Shown here one piece after another: positions 4,970 to 20,641 of a DNA stretch of 20,641 nt (within the stretch, counting starts at the first letter, position 1; every line of letters starts with the position of its first letter). The stretch covers positions 2,657,671-2,678,311 of the forward strand of contig BLXT01006878.1 in assembly GCA_019648995.1 (NCBI GenBank). Reading direction: 5' to 3'. The position numbers were made by a program, and so were the translations under genes. The stretch comes from Plakobranchus ocellatus. Lineage: Eukaryota. Under the pieces are notes generated by a model that saw only the letters and a list, made by a program, of their open reading frames with translations, did not search any database and was not told where the DNA came from.

Positions 4970-6919
4970 ATGGATAATACAGCGAACAAAAAGAGGACAG
5001 CTTGTGTTCTGCCTTGCTCTAATACAAAATCTCAACCTCCAGTAGACCATGGCTGGGCATGGTTTGTTATGTTGGGAGCAACAGTTAATGTTATGGTGCT
5101 CATGGTGTTTTTACGAGCCAGCTCTTTACTATTCATTCAATTTCTGGATATCTATCAGGCTTCTGCGACCATGACAACTCTAGTTTTCGCTCTGTCGTCT
5201 ACAACATTCTCTGTCAGCAACATCTTAGCCGCTACTGTTCTCCTGCCGCGCTACGATGTGAGGACTTTAGGCATAATTGGTGCACTGGTAAATTTCGTAA
5301 GCACTATAGGCATTGCGTTTGCTCCAAACATAGCTGTGGTGAACATCATGTTTGCTATAGTAGGATTTGCCCATGGATTGATTGTCGTTCCTCAGTTAAC
5401 GCTGCTCGGCCATTATTTCAAACGGCATTTATCTCTCGCCACAGCCACTACCACCATGGGCATTAGTCTGGCCACCATTTTCGGGACACCACTCACGCAA
5501 GTGCTACTTGATATTTATGATGTTAGGGGCACAATTCTTCTTTTAGCTGGAGTTACATTGCATTGCGTACCGGCATCTTTATTGCTTCGACCAGTCTCAT
5601 TTTATTCAGCCTCTCCTTTCTCGGTGCATCCACAAGATGAGGATGTAGCTGAAAAGAGCTCAAGTGGTGTGCTAAATAACATTTTTTATGACAAAAACAG
5701 AGATTCTATGCGACAAGGTGACAAAGCTCCTTTCTTGGTGCAAAACAATAAACTTAATCATAAACGTGAAGTTATCGTTGAGGAAGATAAAAATGAAACG
5801 TCCAACTCAGAAGATCAGTGTAAAGAGGATGACCAGAAATCGTCATCGACAATTGAAACAAGTGACAAAGATATTTGCACTCCTCGTCTACTTCAGAAAA
5901 TGCCACCACCTAGAATACGGAGCGTAAGCGAAAGCTGGCATGTTCTAGAGAATAAGATGAACAATCACAGACACCTGTACGGCAAAAATGACATTTTTAT
6001 GGAATATTCTGATACAAACGGCTCGACTGTATTAGGTCGCAAAGCGAGTTCTGCAGGCGTTAAAACCTCTCTCTCTAATATTCTTTCAGCAAGTATTAGA
6101 TACCTTGGTGACACCAGCTCTTTCTACGGCAGTTCTGTATCCCAAATCCATCACATTCACACACGCGGCATTGAAACTCGTTCAGTTATAGACTTGGGTC
6201 ACAACCAAGCTGAGATCTCAACCTTATTCGAAAACGCAAGTACCTCAAGTTCTGAAAGTGAAATCAGCGTTAAGAAAAGAGGAAAGAGTTTCTTTTGCCG
6301 TCTAAAACGCTTAGCCTCTCAGAGTGTCTTCACCCATCCTGTAGGCCTACTCATACTCTTAGCCTCCGGATTGGGCATCCATACGCAGGCAGGAGTAGCC
6401 TATATGCCTGCCACTGGCATTGAAAACGGTTGTACTGAGGAGCAGGTGCCTTTTCTCATGACTGCCGTTGGTGTAGCTGACGTGGTAAGCAAGCTTTGTA
6501 TGGGCTTCTTGGCCGACACAGGCATTATTAAACGCATTCATGTCGCGTGTCTGTCGCAATTAACTATCGGGTTGCTCTTCCAGTTAGTGCCAGTGTTCCA
6601 AGGATTTATTTTGATGATTCTATTGCAGGCACTGATAGGATTCACTGTGGGGGTGTTTCATATGCTGGTTCCAGTCATCACAGTAGATTTGCTGGGCGTG
6701 CAGCATATGGGCCATATAATGGCAGGTTATATGCTGATTAATGGCTTCACCAACGCTATTGACCATTTGGTTGTTGGCTCTCTTAGCGATCTCACTGGGT
6801 CTTTTTATGGCGCATACCACTACATGGGTTCTTTAACACTTATGTCAGTCGCTATGCTCTTATCGCAGCCACTCGTTGAACGCTGCTTAACACGTTCAAG
6901 CGCAGAAGCAACAGTTTAG
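4970..6919 (+). CDS. Monocarboxylate transporter (SLC16/MCT family, MFS superfamily), single uninterrupted ORF of 649 aa
   Basis: ATG at 4970 with an in-frame TGA immediately upstream (4958-4960) and no acceptor between, so no N-terminal extension. TAG stop at 6917-6919. The translation carries both SLC16 signature motifs: TM1 '...VDHGWAWFVMLGA' (the [D/E]G[G/S][W/F][G/A]W box) and TM5 'GHYFKRHLSLATATTTMGISLA' (the YFxK[R/K]xLAxGxxxxG box). Hydropathy by eye gives 6+6 TM helices split by a ~240-aa hydrophilic loop (SPFSVHPQDED...KRLASQSV). GC content of the ORF (~45%) is clearly above the flanks. AATAAA signals at 7037-7042 and 7090-7095 downstream. Confidence 0.85.
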   Translation: MDNTANKKRTACVLPCSNTKSQPPVDHGWAWFVMLGATVNVMVLMVFLRASSLLFIQFLDIYQASATMTTLVFALSSTTFSVSNILAATVLLPRYDVRTLGIIGALVNFVSTIGIAFAPNIAVVNIMFAIVGFAHGLIVVPQLTLLGHYFKRHLSLATATTTMGISLATIFGTPLTQVLLDIYDVRGTILLLAGVTLHCVPASLLLRPVSFYSASPFSVHPQDEDVAEKSSSGVLNNIFYDKNRDSMRQGDKAPFLVQNNKLNHKREVIVEEDKNETSNSEDQCKEDDQKSSSTIETSDKDICTPRLLQKMPPPRIRSVSESWHVLENKMNNHRHLYGKNDIFMEYSDTNGSTVLGRKASSAGVKTSLSNILSASIRYLGDTSSFYGSSVSQIHHIHTRGIETRSVIDLGHNQAEISTLFENASTSSSESEISVKKRGKSFFCRLKRLASQSVFTHPVGLLILLASGLGIHTQAGVAYMPATGIENGCTEEQVPFLMTAVGVADVVSKLCMGFLADTGIIKRIHVACLSQLTIGLLFQLVPVFQGFILMILLQALIGFTVGVFHMLVPVITVDLLGVQHMGHIMAGYMLINGFTNAIDHLVVGSLSDLTGSFYGAYHYMGSLTLMSVAMLLSQPLVERCLTRSSAEATV

Positions 6920-7290: not shown

Positions 7291-7334
<44 letters not shown>
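7291..7334 (+). repeat. (AG)22 microsatellite embedded in a ~160-nt polypurine tract (about 7190-7350)
   Basis: Perfect AG repeats flanked by an A/G-only run (gacgggagagagagaaaaggatgagagaacagaaaaagagggagagggggagg...). It generates the spurious - strand ORF at 7161-7457. Confidence 0.98.
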
Positions 7335-7341
<7 letters not shown>

Positions 7342-11567: not shown

Positions 11568-11690
11568 CTAATCTTGGGAGTAAGTATGGTCTTTGCCCAC
11601 AAGACCTGCAGCAGTGTTGATCAGGTTGATTGGGGAGTTGCCATCTGTTAGTAGGACACTCTCCAAGCCAAGACCCTTCAGTAAATTCAG
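11568..11690 (-). CDS. MVP: Major vault protein terminal exon: [40 protein letters not shown]
   Basis: Matches the human MVP cap-ring '[30 protein letters not shown]' very closely. Excellent acceptor caattgttttttcag|CTG (+ ctg 11691-11693), phase 0. An in-frame TGA 15 nt upstream rules out any extension. TAG stop at + 11568-11570. It is followed on the - strand by two AATAAA signals within 30 nt. Confidence 0.85.
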
Positions 11691-13851
11691 CTGAAAAAAC
11701 AATTGTCACTTAATACTTAATTTTTTTTTAAATAATTAAAGAAGATTAGTACTGGACTCTGAGCAAAATAAATAGATATACCTTGAATAAGAGGTAAATT
11801 TTTATTTTTTTTATAACCAATTTAAAAAGCCTTAAAAAGGGAACCTACAAACAAAATTATAGGACAAGATTTGCTGATATACTTCTTCTTTTTTTTTCCG
11901 TTAAGTCCTGCTCAGATCCTGGGATTCAAAATGCGGAAAAGTTAAAAACTTGAAATATTTAGCTGCCTCAAATCGAGAATGAAATAGATTTCAGCTTAAA
12001 AATTATATCAAATTAAAAATGACATAAATGGCAAATGAAGGAAAATGGTAATATTTCTTTTGAAATGGCACAAAAACATGTAAGAAAAATAGACATGTCA
12101 TAAAAAAGAATATATGTAAACCTGGTTTTGGGGTCCTGCATTTGCCATAGCCACAATAGTTGCAGGACCTAGAGCATTCACCATTTCTCTGAACTTGTTT
12201 ACCTTATGTGGACAAAAAAAGTATTGACCATTGAAAACAATTAAATTATCACTTTACTAAACATTTGAACTCATTTAAGGTAAATTAAAATACAAAGCAA
12301 AGAATCTTTGGATTTAAATGAGAAATTTCAACCTGAAAAAAATAAGCTTGGCAGCTTAACTCTAAGATTAACAAAAACCTACTACAAAAACAAACTTTAA
12401 AGATGTACAGTAATTTTGCGGCAAAATCCTGTTGAAGTGGTCTACATAATTTGAAAGCATTTGAAATATGTTTCTGTGGAGTATTCCATGATGAAAAATA
12501 TTGTTTTCCAAGACTGTGAAAATCCAATGTTCAAAAACATAAAACTCATACTTAATGTCATTCTTGTAGGGCACCACAATTCTAAGGTTTTGAGAAAAAA
12601 AAAGCATTTTAATTTGTTCTCTCATTGATGTATTTTTTAACTCTTGTATATGCAACACTTCCTTTGCATTTCTCAATTGTTTTATTAATTACTGAAAATA
12701 ATAGAAGACTTGGGACTGGTCATACACAGTCTCAAAGAGACTGAATCAAGACCTTGATTCACCGCTCATTGTAGACTAGATATATATCATTCAAACTAAA
12801 AATAAAAAAAAACCTGCTAAGACCAAAAGATTTCAGATAAGTTCCCTCTCTCTTTCTTTTCCCCGTTTGACTAACAAAGCTGACGATATATAGGTAAAGA
12901 TTTATTTAAATTGGCAAATTAATTGGGTGGATGACGTATGGCAAACAAAGCTATAATTCGCAAGGGAAAAAAAGCTTTTAAAAAACCTTAGATAAAAAAT
13001 TAGGTAATAAGTCCCTCCCCACTCCCACCCTTTCTCGCCTGATCCTGCAAAGTTCATTCCCAGAACATCAGTTATCACTAGATCTATCAAAGAACATTGA
13101 TTATCTCTTAAAAAAACAAGCTTGCAGCTACCTCATCAGAAATATGATGCTCACCTACCCATCCCACGATCTATCTTAAAAATAAGTCTAGCACTAGATT
13201 TAGATAAATATCAGGCACTCATGACAACCACTGACGGTCAGGGTTTGCATTTCTTTGTAAAGGACTTGGCAAAGTTTACATCTTTCTACCCATCTCTCCT
13301 GCACTCAGTCCCTGTTGACCACATGCCCCAAATTTGAGTGATAGACAGTTAAAACAAACAAACCTGCAAGGCATAGCGATGATAAACCCGCATATAAGTT
13401 TCATACAGTCAAAACCACTGTCACCAACCCAAATTTATGACTGGAAAGAGGCCATTAAATTTTTTTGTCCTCCTCTCTCTTTAAAAAACAAACATCAAAT
13501 AAAATGATGACAAACTTTCCATGTTAGCAAAGACTGATGGAGCAACCAATTATATTATTTTTATTTAGTGGATCTCCTTCACTATGCTATTTTGAACACA
13601 GCAATGTCAAACCTATGAATTTTTTTCTAATGATTTTGAGGTACCTGTGCTGGACTTCATTTATTAAGACTGCAAAACAGATTGAAAATTGAAACACATT
13701 GAAATGTTCCCAGAATATGTTATAAACATACCTCTATCTGTGAGAAGCTTTTCTGTTTCTCAATCTCCATAACATTAACTTTTCTGTTGTGATCTATGTC
13801 ACTTTTCTGTAACTGTAAAAACAAATTTTGAAAAGAAAAAAAATTGGACCA

Positions 13852-13852
<1 letters not shown>

Positions 13853-13884
<32 letters not shown>
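13853..13884 (+). repeat. Poly(A) tract, A32
   Basis: 32 consecutive A, lying inside the MVP intron between exons 11690 and 13996. Confidence 0.98.
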
Positions 13885-13887
<3 letters not shown>

Positions 13888-13995
13888 TCAAGAAGCCACC
13901 TTAGTCACAATCTAAAATTATACTTTTGAGGGTTGAAAGACAGTTTTTTGCACCTCCAATCGACCTTCTTTTTTTAATTAGATTTACTTGTCTAC

Positions 13996-14172
13996 AGCTG
14001 ATAGTGATGGCAACATAAATAATTTAACCAAGAATTTGGTCATTTGATCAGACATTTCTTCATACTGACATAATATGTATTTCATCTCAGCATTATTTTC
14101 ATTCTTCAGCCAGTTTTTGCCCAAATGATCCAATCTTTCATAATTTTGGTGATACAAAGTTCTCACTTTCAA
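13996..14172 (-). CDS. MVP: Major vault protein exon (divergent cap-helix segment): LKVRTLYHQNYERLDHLGKNWLKNENNAEMKYILCQYEEMSDQMTKFLVKLFMLPSLSA
   Basis: Strong acceptor tatattttgcag|TTG (+ ctg 14173-14175). Open in one frame only. Starts with KVR as in human 'QKVRELELVY...', and 'QMT' aligns with human 'KQMTEAIGP'. The 3' end was chosen at donor GCT|GTAGAC (phase 0) because the next confident exon needs phase 0. A better-looking donor GACAA|GTAAAT (exon end 13988, phase 2) exists but is phase-incompatible. Otherwise the frame runs into TAA at 13984-13986. Confidence 0.5.
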
Positions 14173-14903
14173 CTGCAAAATATATTTTGAAGGACTTGCA
14201 TTTTCACAAGCTGACAAAGATCATAATTATATTGAAACTGTAATGTTGCTTGATTTATCTAAAGGTATTGGGAACATATTATTATATAAGTCAAAAGTTC
14301 ATTTGTGTTGCAGTCCCTCAAAATGAGTTGAGTTGCGGTTTTGCATGATTAACTAAAGAGAAAAAAAAACATTCACTAGAGGGGTGAACACTATCAACCT
14401 CTCTGCATGGAAAACTTACTACAGACACACTTTAAGATTTTTGCACATGAAGCATTAGAAATTTTTTACCTCTTTACTTTAATATCTTAAGTTAATTTCA
14501 GTGATGCAGATCCGCAACTTGACCCATTTTGTGAGATTCCTCACATTCAGACAACAAAGGAATTGGAAAGACCTAGCATTTAAATTATAATTCATTTGGT
14601 CGACAAAAACATGTGATGAAGAAGAGGAAAAACTCACACACTTAAGTTTTTTCAAACAAAAGAAATTGTAATCAAAGAGAATTCTTGTCATGTGTATTCA
14701 CTCTACTGACAATAAAAGAGATTTCGAGGCACACTTTTTTTTAACTGCTCAATTTACCTTTTGATACATTTTTCCTTATAAAAATAATTGTCATATTAAT
14801 GTCAAATATGTCAAATAAGGTTACCACAATGAAGCACTGAAAAAAAAACTACTTTCAGTGTAAAAACATGCAGGCTTAAATTGCCAAAAAAAAAAAGCCT
14901 TAC

Positions 14904-14968
14904 CATAACTTTTATTGACAACAGAGAACTGTCCTCTATGTTAGCAGCTTCTGCCTTGAGTTTAGCCA
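14904..14968 (-). CDS. MVP: Major vault protein exon (phase 1 to 0): VAKLKAEAANIEDSSLLSIKVM
   Basis: Acceptor tttctttgcattag|TG (+ ctaa 14969-14972). Donor ATG|GTAAGG (+ ccttac 14898-14903). Aligns without gaps to human 'LQAKLKAQALAIETEAELQRVQKV' (AKLKA, IE, L, KV conserved). The spacing from the IEG motif of the preceding exon is identical to human. Confidence 0.75.
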
Positions 14969-16327
14969 CTAATGCAAAGAAAGAAAATACAAGAAATTTA
15001 TAGCAAAATTAGTTCAACACATTTTGTTTGAGATAAGCGACTCCAATCAAGGGAGATTCAAGATAAGCCTCTTTTTTTTTTAAAAACACTCTTAAAATAA
15101 TGTTTGGATATTTTCATCAACCTGTTGACTTGAAATTTGCCTTTGTTCATTCATTATTCAGAGAATGCCTGGATAAATAATGTTTGGACATTTTTACAAG
15201 TTGTGTATTCAAAATATTTTTAGGGAGTACTAATTATAATAAATCAGAAATAAAAACTCCTAAGCAACATTACATCAAGAAAGAATCAATTTTTCCATCA
15301 TGCAATTATAAGCTTAGTGCAACCAGAGGGTAATTCAAGCAATGACATCTTTTTTCTATGACCCTAACCTGGTTTGTGATGTGGTTTAGTCAAAATGGGT
15401 CACAGATGTAAACAATGCCAAATTTCTGTTAGATCTAGACTTATAATCTGTACAGATTTCAGAGTCTTAAAATTTCATTATAGTAAGTGTTTCAAAATTC
15501 ACAGTGATGAAAATGTGTCGGCATCAAAAAAGTGCTGTTACTGACAATGCCATGCCTTACATGTTCCTGGCTCCTAGATACTCATTTGCATAAATGAATG
15601 CCGGTTAATCACAAATATTTTTAGTCTCAATCAGACGACAAAAAAGGAAAAAAAAAAACTAAAATTTTTTTTTAAAGCCAAATTAAGGCTTTTTTTTTCT
15701 TCAAAATACTGACAATAAAATTAGCGGGTCAAAAAAAAAATTTTATTTTGATGTGCAACAAATTGTTTAAGAGATCGTGACGGTGTAAATTTAACCAACA
15801 AAAGCTTGCTGTTTCCTGGCTATTTCAGTCTTGCCTGAATCTGTATATCTATGCTATGATTAATTTAGTCACAATCAACTTGAGCAAGCGATGTAGCCTT
15901 TTGCATATACTCATGATGGACATAGTGATGAATAAACCTTCACTAACAAATCAGTTTTACTTTTAGAATTATTCGTATGTTAGGCAAGACTTATTTAAGG
16001 TCTAGATCTAATTGTAACGCAAATACACCGAGAAGACAGTTGTATCTATGAGATGAATGGTATTTGTTTACATCCAAGTCCCATTTCCTTGTTCATGCAA
16101 CTGCATCAAAATCCAAGGTCATGACCGAGTAAATATTCAAAAAAGCCTGTGGGTTTTCCCCCTTAGATATTTCCATGAACTTTAAAAAAAAAACATGTTA
16201 AAAGCATTCCTTCTCTGCCTGAAGTCATCTTGAGGGATGATTCCTCTCTATTAGTGAGTTCTTTGAAAATCTGTTTTATTTCTCAGTTTCTTTCCAGATG
16301 AAAAGGAAAATGGTAACAACATCCTAC

Positions 16328-16554
16328 CCTCAATGTCACTCTGGCCTTCAATCAGCAATCTCTCTGCCTGTGCCTGTGCCTCAGCTTTTGCTTGACCTGT
16401 TGACTCAACTGCAGCAGTCTGAGCCTTCAGCTCATATAGCTTCACTCGCTCTCGTTCAGACTCCTTCTCTGTCATCAGTATTTGGCGTTCTAGATGACCA
16501 CGAGCAATCTGCTCTTCCCTGGCTGCCTCATGAGATGCTGCTGCTTCAATAGAT
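16328..16554 (-). CDS. MVP: Major vault protein exon (phase 2 to 1): (K)SIEAAASHEAAREEQIARGHLERQILMTEKESERERVKLYELKAQTAAVESTGQAKAEAQAQAERLLIEGQSDIE
   Basis: Colinear with human MVP '[74 protein letters not shown]' (cap-helix coiled coil). Acceptor ctttgtgcag|A (+ 16555-16557). Donor GAGG|GTAGGA (+ tcctac 16322-16327). The phase-2 donor of the 19334 exon completes AAA (K) across the ~2.8-kb intron. Confidence 0.9.
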
Positions 16555-17512
16555 CTGCACAAAGATGTTCAATACAGTGCAATTCAGTTACTGTAGAGTT
16601 CTTGATTCCAGGGTAATATCAAAGAATGAGAAAGATAGAATTAATCAGAAAGCAAAATGTAAGCCACAAGCACTTGGTATGCTTCAATCTGAATCCTACA
16701 GCATATGCCATTCTGCCTTGCCTCTATTTTATTCATGCTTCTTCAAATGTTATAGTAATTAGATTGTGTAAGGGCTAAGTATCAAAATATACAAACCATT
16801 TACCCCACCACTCACCTTTTCTTAACAAAAAAAAAAACAAAAACAAAAAAAAAAAGAAAGAAAAAGAAAAAAAATTATTGATATGAAGGACTGCAAATCA
16901 GCAAGAACAAACTCCTCAGTCTCTCTCGAGTCGCCATTCCCTATTTTTAGCCTCCACAATTAACTTACTCCCTGAATCTTTCATGACAAATTGTCTTAGC
17001 TTTATATCCAGGGTAATTGTCTTGATGTCAAACCCAGAGTCAAACCTCTACATCTAATTTGTAAAATAATCTATAGAAGCCATGCTGAGCTTTAACTTCT
17101 TTTCCATCTCAATCACATTCCCAATAGGCAAAAGACTGAGTAATCTCAATAGATTTTTTGTCACAAAACAAAATAAGACTCAAAAACTGAAACAGAGACA
17201 TCACATTTATAATTATGTGATCCATATGCTAGGAAATGAGTCATTTTTCTGTAGTTGCCAAATACAAATTTAAAACACATCAGTCAAACATGATAGAAGA
17301 TACAATTTTTTTCACGTATTTCAGAAATGTAACCATTTGCAATGTACTGACAATTTGCTTTTTCAATATCTTCAATAGTTTTCACATACTTTGTTTGACA
17401 CCCTATAGGGTGCTTCCTCACAAAAAAAAACATGAGTTGTATATATGATCCCATAATTACTAATTTATCATCACAAAGGTGCTGCAAAAAAAATGTCTTG
17501 AGCAAAAATCCA

Positions 17513-17676
17513 AAAATTTTAAAAATGTTCACAAAAAAAAGAAACTCTTTTTGCATAAAAAAAAAGTCAAAAACAGCTCTGCAAAGCTATTCTTAAAATT
17601 TTAAAAATGTTCACAAAAAAAAGAAACCCTTTTTGCATTAAAAATAAGTGGAAAACAGCTCTGCAAAGCTATTCTT
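17513..17676 (+). repeat. Tandem duplication of an ~82-bp unit (about 90% identical copies)
   Basis: Unit aaaattttaaaaatgttcacaaaaaaaagaaacYctttttgcatWaaaa...aaaacagctctgcaaagctattctt occurs at 17513-17594 and 17595-17676, within the 2.8-kb MVP intron. Confidence 0.85.
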
Positions 17677-19333
17677 TGCCACAGAATCCATTTTAAAAAG
17701 ACTTGAACATTGGTTTTTTTTTGTTGTTTTTTTTAACGGTAACTGTAAAGCAAAATAAATCACCTCATGATTCATTTACATTCTCATCATCAAGTGGCAT
17801 TGATAGATATCAAATTATATTTGGTTTACTTGTAGTTATCAACACATAAGTTTCCTTTCAAGTTTGAAGAAAATAGAAACTTTTTTAAGCCATCTTTGTA
17901 AAGCAAGCTCCACCTTAGATTTAAGGGCAAGTGCTGCACTCAGGGGTGATTTTCTTTATTTCTTAAATGATACTTTTATAAAGGATTTATTTTTTATATA
18001 TGGCTCCCAAAAAGTGATATTAACAACCAAAATAACTTTTTTTTTTCAATTTACATTGGCATGGCAACAGAAAAAAATGTCGACCATCTTAAATATAAAC
18101 ATACATTTCAAAATCTTATAACTTCTAAATTAAATAAGATATCAACTTTTTCTATACCTGAATATGATTTTATGTTAAATTTGAAGGTTTTCAATTAACC
18201 TTTTAAGGTTAGACAGAAAAGGGAAATTTACATGAAATTATGAAAATTATATATAGATAAAATCAAAATTTTGGACACATAAAAATTAAAAAAAAATTTT
18301 TAGATGTGATTCCAAAAAGCCTATCTGTAAAGCAAGATAATACTCCCCTAAAACTTCATGGCAAGTTTCCAACAAATCTTATGAAAAAAAATTCAAAGTT
18401 TTAAGAACGTTTGTCTGAAAAAAATTCATTTTGAGAATATGGCCAATAAAGTCTGAGCAAAAATATTTTTGTTTTTTGACCAATTATGCGATGCCAGCTC
18501 CATATGATGGGCCTCCTTCAGCTCTCTCAAGCTCTTCCTGTTGCTTCTGTCTCCTTTCGGCCATTTTCTTATATCCAGTTCATGCTGGCGGTCACTCACG
18601 CACTAAACTGGCTGAAACTTCACTCAAAGGCCAACAAAGCATTATGTAAACAAATTAGCATAAGAACAGGTGATCTCTGTGTCACAATGAGATGTCAGAT
18701 TTTCGCTTCGATTTCATTGGGCAGTAACAGCTTGCAGGGCTGACAGTTGTGCACAAACTAAGGAACCAGAAGCCTCCATATGCAAAATCGACGCTGTTGT
18801 AATAAAAACCGTGGGAACCAGGACAGACCCTCCATATATGTTAATGGTTATGAATGGAGCTTGCTTCTTGGAAAATTTCAATTTAGATATCCATAAATGG
18901 TACTTCTGGTGGCATTGATAGGAAGGCTGCGACTTTGAACTTTCCATTGATATATAACATGCCTATGCTTTTAAAGGGGTAGCAGGCCTATATAGCTTGC
19001 ATAAACAGCAAATTTTGACACATTTTTCTTGAAAATTGGCAATCTTTCTTGGAGTAGCAATTTTGAATTTACAATAAAAGACAATTTTAGCCAAAGATAG
19101 GCCTAATAACACTCTTCAGATGATTACAAATTGGACAAACTTTACAAAACTACCTGTAGTCAAAATTTGACTCAGTGACCCAAATTAACCTCAGAACCCC
19201 CATCTCCAGAAGCCGCACTTGCCCTCAAAAGTCTAGTAGGAGAGAAAATTGTGAACGATAAATAACCATGCATCAAATGTGCAACCATCCAAACAAAAAC
19301 AAATATTCTAAATTGTTAAAATAAAAGCCTTAC

Positions 19334-19434
19334 TTTGTGGCAATTTCAATCGCTAACTGCACAGATTTGCTAAGGCTGTCTCTCATCTTGACATCAACTG
19401 GTTCAATACTTTGAACATCTACACCGCTGATAAC
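19334..19434 (-). CDS. MVP: Major vault protein exon (phase 0 to 2): [34 protein letters not shown]
   Basis: Reverse-strand translation matches the conserved MVP shoulder/cap-helix junction (human '[34 protein letters not shown]') almost residue for residue. Acceptor tgtttcag|GTT at 19435-19437 (+ strand ctg). Donor ACAAA|GTAAGG (+ strand ccttac at 19328-19333). Confidence 0.85.
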
Positions 19435-19478
19435 CTGAAACATTTAATAAGTACTAGATATTGTGAAAAGCCTCTTAC

Positions 19479-19532
19479 TCTGAGAATAGTCATAATCACA
19501 TTTTGCACAGCAGCACCAAACCTAAGCTGAGT
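19479..19532 (-). CDS. MVP: Major vault protein, tentative exon (phase 0 to 0) encoding TQLRFGAAVQNVIMTILR
   Basis: Acceptor gggtag| and strong donor CTCAGA|GTAAGA. Phase-compatible with the next exon. Weak similarity to the loop 'LPRPRDQAVFPQNGL' that precedes VVSSVDVQ in vertebrate MVP. The implied downstream intron is only 44 nt, which lowers confidence. Confidence 0.3.
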
Positions 19533-20641
19533 CTACCCAACAGGGCTATAAAATATTTTCATTCTTTTTAAGATCTGTCTTAAAAACTGGGTTCCTGCTT
19601 CTTATCAGAGAAAAAAATTCAAGAATTTCTCACAGAGCTTTTCATGGACTTGAACAGCATTTTCCATGATAATTTTGCAATACACGAACAAATAAAATGT
19701 ATGTTTAGATCAGAGAGTAAAGCAATTCATTCATTTACTATCATAAAATCCACCATAAAATAGATGGATTTAATCACTTAGCTTAAAAGCAACAGTCTGG
19801 GTGAAAGTGACGACTCTGACACACAGGAACAAGATACCTCTGATGGCCTCTAGATTTCTTATGTGATGTAAGGGCACTGCAACTCATGTTGGCAATATCT
19901 ATTTTCGTACTACAGATTTTACATCAGGGTAATATATACTAGAAGGCATTGAAGCCAACCAATATCTCAAGTGTTTGATTGAGAACCATTAATTATTTTT
20001 CTTGGCATATTCCAAAAGATATCTAATTCGGACAAATATGATAGTCAATTGACTATGGATGATGAAATTACAGATTTATGATTAACCTCTATATCCTGGA
20101 AAATATAAAGTAGGTCTATACAAGAAAGATGGAAAACAGATGTTTGTCCTGTATTTTGAAATGATATATATTAAAGACATTTTGCTTTCAAAATATATTT
20201 AAAGCTATGTTCTAGTTTAATTACATCCTATTAAAATTTTACCATTTTGAATTTCAAAATTTTAGTTTAAAAAATTTGAACATTATTTCAAATTTTGAGA
20301 ATTTATGTGACTATTCAAATGTCATCTTTGTATGAATATTGCCTCTGTAACCAAAACTTTAAAAAAAGAAACAAAAATAAAAAGCACTGTAGTTTTGCAG
20401 TGGGTAAAAAGGAAAATGTAATAATATCCATCTTTCTGTCATAAATAATTTAAATCAAAAAAATATTTCAGATACAACCTGTTGATATCAAACGTAAAAT
20501 TTCAGTCAATTCTATTTGTAGCTGAATGTAGACCTTTGCAACTCTTCCAAGAAAACTCCTAAGACAGCTTCATAAAATTGAAGCTGAGAACCTTATTATA
20601 ATAATAAAATAAGCAATTTCAACAAAAATTCCTCCCCTTGC

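Follow-up and report, generated by a model that had tools for sequence, protein, structure and literature searches.

The 3' end of the major vault protein gene of Plakobranchus ocellatus and its short cap-helix exons

The minus strand of a 20,641-nt stretch of DNA from the sacoglossan sea slug Plakobranchus ocellatus (assembly GCA_019648995.1, contig BLXT01006878.1, positions 2,657,671 to 2,678,311; "the window" in the following) carries, with a probability of about 97%, the last six coding exons of a conventional and apparently single major vault protein (MVP) gene, encoding residues 631-855 of 855. This gene is already deposited and named and is an ordinary MVP gene, not a new one. The product of the six exons is letter for letter identical to residues 631-855, the last 225, of the entry "major vault protein [Plakobranchus ocellatus]" (P0313, 855 aa), and in a tblastn search of the window these residues map to the six exons only. 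The deposited and the present gene are the same and show no difference, with the exons for residues 1-630 absent from the window.

Six exons in colinear order

An MVP profile built from 120 MVP C-termini detected six minus-strand segments in colinear order. An earlier sequence-only reading had already assigned this strand to the 3' part of an MVP gene, with the conserved segments in this order, and the profile, tblastn and a match to PDB entries all bear this out, although two of the six segments were absent from its five-exon model. Residues 1-220 of the six-exon product correspond to profile positions 70-289 without a single indel (309.9 bits). When the spliced product was compared to the PDB using phmmer, rat and human MVP chains were found with E=1.3e-49, the aligned parts being rat residues 634-759 and 768-851, and together with the profile this shows the cap helix and cap ring to be colinear with MVPs of solved structure. 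No stop interrupts the reading frame across the six exons, the phases close and all splice sites are intact, with 12 of 12 junction sites being canonical. The exon structure as given here is a prediction from homology, from the agreement of the splice sites with the consensus and from the deposited gene model, the latter itself an RNA-seq-guided prediction: the published P. ocellatus annotation combined RNA-seq-guided AUGUSTUS and Exonerate models, which were merged by EVidenceModeler (PMC8079154).

The first exon in the window (E1, 19334-19434, minus strand as all following exons; 101 nt, phase 0 to 2) encodes 33 residues and two nucleotides of a K codon within residues 631-664, where the shoulder domain ends and the cap helix starts. 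It is bounded by the acceptor TTTCAG/GTT and the donor AA/GTAAGG, shows 100% identity to P0313 residues 631-664 in tblastn and matches the profile with E=5e-16. As it begins at 19434 behind the TTTCAG acceptor, positions 19435-19532, which had been counted as part of the feature, are intron. Residues of P0313 before 631 gave no match by tblastn or profile anywhere in 19435-20641, and the N-terminal 630 amino acids must therefore lie beyond the window, as had been predicted with an estimate of about 650.

Exons two and three both belong to the cap helix. E2 (16328-16554, 227 nt, phase 2 to 1; acceptor GTGCAG/A, donor G/GTAGGA) runs from (K)SIEAAASHEAAREEQIARGHLERQ to AVESTGQAKAEAQAQAERLLIEGQSDIE and matches P0313 residues 664-739 in tblastn and the profile with E=1e-28, and E3 (14904-14968, 65 nt, phase 1 to 0; acceptor CATTAG/TG, donor ATG/GTAAGG) encodes (V)AKLKAEAANIEDSSLLSIKVM and matches P0313 residues 740-763. 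The two introns proposed earlier as 19333/16555 and 16327/14969, where the paired numbers are the end positions of each intron, are both of the GT-AG type and were confirmed.

The following two exons were missing from the previous model. E4 (13732-13812, 81 nt, phase 0 to 0; acceptor TTTTTACAG/TTA, donor GAG/GTATGT) encodes LQKSDIDHNRKVNVMEIEKQKSFSQIE, a sequence present in P0313, and its profile match (E=8e-4) exactly fills the otherwise missing positions 200-228. Nowhere is the cap helix less conserved than here. Taken alone, E4 resembles distant MVPs only weakly (E=8e-4, with 19-37% identity to MVPs from outside the sacoglossans), and the case for it is built chiefly on its position, its phase and the orthologues in Elysia. 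Another acceptor in the same frame, 6 nt further downstream, would start the exon at 13806 and may give rise to a minor form; the upstream acceptor yields 309.9 bits compared to 303.7 for the downstream one. E5 (12122-12202, 81 nt, phase 0 to 0; acceptor CATAAG/GTA, donor CAG/GTTTAC) runs from the last part of the cap helix into the cap ring with the sequence VNKFREMVNALGPATIVAMANAGPQNQ, which includes KFREMVNALGPATIVAMANAGPQNQ. It was found by the profile (E=2e-7) and by tblastn with sponge and cnidarian MVPs, and is 93-96% identical to Elysia MVPs.

The last coding exon (E6, 11568-11690; acceptor TTTTTTCAG/CTG) comprises 120 nt and the stop codon TAG at 11570-11568. Its 40 residues form the cap ring and an eight-residue tail and show 100% identity to P0313 residues 815-855 in tblastn (profile E=2e-14). 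As also noted before, the stop is followed by two AATAAA hexamers, which can be read directly on the minus strand at 11559-11554 and 11547-11542, 9 and 21 nt past the stop codon, and which probably serve as poly(A) signals.

A monocarboxylate-transporter gene with a single exon lies in convergent orientation to the MVP gene. The 649-aa open reading frame at 4970-6919 exactly matches the P. ocellatus entry GFO34277.1, and this transporter entry and P0313 are each located on a contig of 3,009,913 bp. Rfam gave no match in the whole window, so that the introns yielded neither a vault RNA nor a snoRNA; ARAGORN found no tRNA, and apart from microsatellites and A/T runs a repeat search revealed a single tandem duplication of 82 bp.

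The open reading frame at 13996-14172

In place of E4 and E5 the sequence-only reading had a poorly conserved exon at 13996-14172. Its later introns stand only in part: 14903 as a donor and 11691 as an acceptor are canonical GT-AG borders, whereas 14173 and 13995 flank a spurious exon. Likewise, the phases 0>2, 2>1 and 1>0 were correct, but the later part of the series contained the wrong exon and omitted two real ones. The stretch shows no similarity to the MVP profile even at E<=100, its peptide is absent from the deposited protein, and a Pfam scan of this and three other long intronic open reading frames gave no match.

We consider it very improbable that 14172-13996 is a sacoglossan-specific cassette exon by which a minor MVP isoform gains 59 cap-helix residues or, more modestly, that the central cap helix, encoded by the end of E3 and by E4, evolves unusually fast in sacoglossans. 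This central part is only 48-67% identical even to the Elysia MVPs, and in all lineages compared no other internal part of MVP is conserved less. Even less probable is a rare cassette exon that would be spliced in together with E4 and E5, so that a minor isoform would have 59 more residues in its cap helix. Its splice sites would be canonical, the frame would be preserved and a model with all exons still reaches 294.7 bits, but its inclusion breaks the profile alignment in two and lowers the score, none of the 13 aligned MVPs has an insertion at this site, and the peptide belongs to no recognisable family, such candidates being common by chance. A 59-residue insert would also be expected to disrupt a helix bundle packed in 39-fold symmetry.

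There is next to no chance that the five-exon model itself is right, with 14172-13996 as a highly divergent cap-helix exon joined directly to the last exon of a lineage-specific or paralogous MVP. The 177 nt are stop-free, in frame and flanked by TTTTGCAG and GTAGAC, and the resulting spacing is roughly correct, with 59 amino acids compared to 54 for the two real exons. However, this model scores 229.3 bits against 309.9 for the six exons, a loss of 81 bits, and it omits the segment in E5 that is so highly conserved in Elysia. Moreover, the same interval offers 60 in-frame, stop-free candidates between AG and GT by chance, and the window contains 22 stop-free stretches of at least 78 amino acids.

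Conservation of the cap helix and the C-terminus

The "divergent cap-helix" described previously is an artefact, since the spurious in-frame open reading frame had been taken instead of two genuine small exons; once the correct exons are used, the region aligns without gaps to bivalve, brachiopod, sponge and frog as well as Elysia and Aplysia MVPs. Among the MVPs compared, those of Elysia are the nearest. Over all 225 C-terminal residues the alignment with Elysia crispata (P0312), Elysia marginata (P0314) and Aplysia californica (P0307) is gapless, and the identity to the two Elysia proteins is 87-100% in E1, E2, E5 and E6. The tails of the Elysia and Aplysia proteins are likewise short, with 5-6 residues past GLVG, but the last seven residues of the P. 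ocellatus protein are unrelated to theirs. Rat and human MVP (PDB 4V60, 4HL8, 7PKR and others) are homologous over rat residues 634-851 with approximately 50% identity, covering the shoulder end, cap helix and cap ring.

The supposedly short C-terminal tail is short only against human MVP: eight residues follow GLVG, compared to 1-9 in eleven other invertebrate MVPs. Rat MVP (861 aa) ends about three residues later than the slug protein, whereas human MVP (893 aa) carries a C-terminal extension of about 35-40 residues that is absent from the slug, the rat and the other invertebrate MVPs compared. As the weakly conserved part lies in the central cap helix in all these lineages, there is no sign of a paralogue or of an unusual C-terminus. 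A decaying or duplicated copy, be it a pseudogene or the divergent paralogue suggested before, could draw on the end of E3 and E4 being less similar than the family average (E4 19-37% against a mean of 39%), but is made extremely improbable by the open frame and intact splice sites, the high Elysia identity of the other four exons, a product identical to the deposited MVP, the presence of every MVP domain in that full-length protein and the finding of only one P. ocellatus entry among the 120 MVP matches listed.

Domain content and implications

The MVP domains of P0313 match their Pfam models above the curated cut-offs, with Vault (PF01505) at 174.6 bits, Vault_3 at 117.2, Vault_2 at 48.4 and Vault_4 at 34.8 for the repeat domains, which are encoded outside the window, and MVP_shoulder (PF11978) at 149 bits (cut-off 25) for residues 527-644. 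Of the shoulder domain the window contains, in E1, no more than the final 14 residues (631-644), after which come the coiled coil of the long cap helix and then the cap ring. The 225-aa tail alone has no Pfam match because Pfam contains no model for the cap-helix and cap-ring region; a sub-threshold match to DUF2807 (18 bits, cut-off 24.2) was rejected as noise from coiled-coil composition. In the crystal structure of the rat vault (PDB 4V60) 39 MVP chains form each half-vault, with the cap helices packed side by side into the cap and the cap ring closing the top. By analogy, the slug MVP would assemble into 78-mer vault particles as rat MVP does.

A protein search with a 188-aa query lacking the middle exons returned only fragments of up to 329 aa with about 52% identity, probably because hits are admitted only up to a certain length in relation to the query. 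The idea of a sponge-like or unrepresented MVP derived from this search was dropped; a 711-aa Mytilus query gave MVPs of molluscs in full length, among them the P. ocellatus entry. In two MVP entries from Mytilus galloprovincialis the similarity is lost after ...ELSYQ, and the small-exon region of MVP seems to derail automated gene models there too.

The locus thus carries little biological weight and its value is methodological. A piece of AT-rich intron that is in frame, free of stops and bounded by AG and GT had passed for a divergent exon, two short real exons had gone unnoticed, and the apparent "short tail" illustrates that human MVP is a risky yardstick for this family when used as the only one.

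MVP exons on the minus strand and two exons missed before

Translation of the minus strand revealed clear major vault protein (MVP) sequence in stop-free stretches at 19333-19443, within 16254-16568 (SIEAAASHEA...AVESTGQAKAEAQAQAERLLIEGQSDIE), within 14814-15008 (VAKLKAEAANIE) and within 11571-11705. Using these four pieces, joined, as query against the PDB, the rat and human MVP chains were matched with E=1.3e-49, and the alignment covers rat residues 634-759 and 768-851. Judged from these alignments, the recognition of MVP is a real feature well past chance level, and the sequence-only reading, which had placed an MVP gene on this strand, was borne out in this respect. Its junctions 19333/16555 and 16327/14969, its donor 14903 and its acceptor 11691 are canonical GT...AG when taken as intron ends, and its phases 0>2, 2>1 and 1>0 are correct. 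The stop codon TAG at 11570-11568 (-) is followed by two AATAAA signals (11559-11554 and 11547-11542, -).

A profile compiled from 120 MVP C-termini was run against all stop-free peptides of the window and returned six colinear minus-strand segments, namely the four known stretches and two more. One of them (12101-12253, -; profile positions 228-257, E=2e-7) corresponds to KFREMVNALGPATIVAMANAGPQNQ, seen at about 12122-12205 (-) in a frame scan, which fits the conserved MVP motif KF..M..A(I/L)G..T....A.AGP and had not been listed before. The other (13723-13887, -; profile positions 200-228, E=8e-4) fills precisely the gap remaining. The two new exons on the minus strand, E4 at 13812-13732 (acceptor TTTTTACAG/TTA, donor GAG/GTATGT) and E5 at 12202-12122 (acceptor CATAAG/GTA, donor CAG/GTTTAC), have canonical splice junctions. 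As both are 81 nt long and run from phase 0 to phase 0, they keep the frame equally well as the 177-nt exon at 14172-13996 that had been proposed in this region and described as poorly conserved.

In order to decide between the gene models we compared their bit scores against the MVP profile. The corrected six-exon model (E1 19434-19334, E2 16554-16328, E3 14968-14904, E4, E5 and E6 11690-11568) reached 309.9 bits, compared to 294.7 for all seven exons, 229.3 for the earlier five-exon model and 213.8 without the earlier exon and both new ones. Residues 1-220 of the six-exon product match profile positions 70-289 with zero insertions or deletions. The exon at 13996-14172, which lies within an ORF at 13987-14220, gave no MVP profile match even at E<=100 and no match in a Pfam scan. 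It was rejected as an MVP exon and is regarded as a chance ORF, because the six-exon model scores higher without indels. The region from the E3 donor to the E6 acceptor contains 60 in-frame, stop-free candidates of 20-80 aa bounded by AG and GT, and stop-free stretches of 78 aa or more number 22 across the whole window.

E4 is preceded by a tandem acceptor (TTACAG/TTACAG, 13818-13807, -), whose two 3' splice sites are separated by 6 nt and both keep the frame; the exon then starts at 13812, or at 13806 if the residues LQ are left out. The profile prefers the upstream site (309.9 vs 303.7 bits), which is also the one used in the deposited protein described below. About 40 nt further upstream, in the polypyrimidine region, lies a perfect T32 homopolymer (13853-13884, coding, minus strand); such a long run is liable to length errors as well as polymorphism and could have an effect on E4 splicing.

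Agreement with the deposited P. ocellatus protein

A search with full-length Mytilus MVP found a deposited 855-aa "major vault protein [Plakobranchus ocellatus]" (P0313), whose last 225 residues are identical to the six-exon product in every letter. In tblastn its residues 631-855 map to the six exons only, and residues 1-630 could not be placed anywhere in the window. Pfam assigns it the full MVP set of domains (Vault, Vault_2, Vault_3, Vault_4 and MVP_shoulder). The genome paper of P. ocellatus, a sacoglossan sea slug, appeared in eLife in 2021, and the deposited gene models are RNA-seq-guided AUGUSTUS and Exonerate predictions merged by EVidenceModeler (PMC8079154). As our model was built from homology and splice sites prior to viewing this annotation, the agreement is independent. 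The feature limit of 19532 proposed earlier lies 98 nt past the true start of E1, and 19435-19532 (-) is not exonic. In another frame this stretch reads TQLRFGAAVQN..., with a loose likeness to the ...KLRFSANNL found ahead of VISG in the slug MVP; as the frame is wrong and P0313 gave no tblastn match here, this was treated as coincidence.

Cap helix and C-terminus compared to other MVPs

The sequence-only reading had also described a divergent cap helix and a short C-terminal tail, pointing to a divergent paralogue or a lineage-specific C-terminus, and neither the cap helix nor the tail supports this. Once the correct exons are used, the alignment of this region with 13 other MVPs (Elysia, Aplysia, other gastropods, bivalves, Lingula, a sponge and a frog) has no gaps. 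Identity to Elysia crispata MVP is 100% in E1, 87% in E2, 57% in E3, 63% in E4, 93% in E5 and 94% in E6 (up to GLVG), and the mean pairwise identity among ten non-sacoglossan MVPs is 79, 69, 57, 39, 49 and 63%, respectively. The drop at E3 and E4 is a property of the whole MVP family. The slug E4 shows 19-37% identity to distant species, somewhat under the family mean of 39%, which is at most a mild lineage effect.

The slug protein ends 8 residues past the GLVG motif, compared to 1-9 residues in eleven other invertebrate MVPs and 13 in the frog, and it stops about 3 residues short of the end of rat MVP (861 aa) in the PDB alignment. Among the proteins compared only human MVP (893 aa), the yardstick used before, carries a long C-terminal extension. 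The apparent oddities result from one wrongly picked exon and a human-centred comparison.

In two deposited Mytilus galloprovincialis MVP models, P0136 (VDI74248.1) and P0272 (VDI74247.1), the similarity to MVP breaks off midway through the cap helix, after ...AQELSYQ, and unrelated sequence (ELTEWKFRKRRADIVLFNIILH) follows up to the end. No such break occurs in the Mytilus coruscus model. The two M. galloprovincialis models look like gene-model errors in the same small-exon region where the sequence-only reading went astray.

Genomic neighbourhood and vault context

The only long ORF of the window (4970-6919, +) is a single exon, and its 649-aa product contains an MFS_1 domain and matches GFO34277.1, monocarboxylate transporter [Plakobranchus ocellatus], exactly. 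This ORF is convergent with the MVP gene, with about 4.6 kb from stop codon to stop codon. No RNA genes were found in the window using Rfam and ARAGORN, and its repeats are only microsatellites, A/T runs and one intronic tandem duplication. The latter consists of an 82-bp unit (17513-17676, 94% identical) in the E1-E2 intron and overlaps a 100-aa chance ORF without Pfam match. On either side of the transporter gene lie (CT)37 and (AG)22 microsatellites in opposite orientation (785-858 and 7291-7335); a repeat finder called them long inverted repeats, which are merely simple-sequence matches.

In each half-vault the cap helices of 39 chains lie side by side and form the cap. Taking the rat vault (PDB 4V60) as a guide, we read the MVP segment encoded in the window as the last part of the shoulder domain, followed by a cap-helix coiled coil of roughly 155 residues and then the cap ring. 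The gene is annotated already and is probably a conventional MVP orthologue. Its product is homologous to the solved rat and human chains and would be expected to assemble into vaults.
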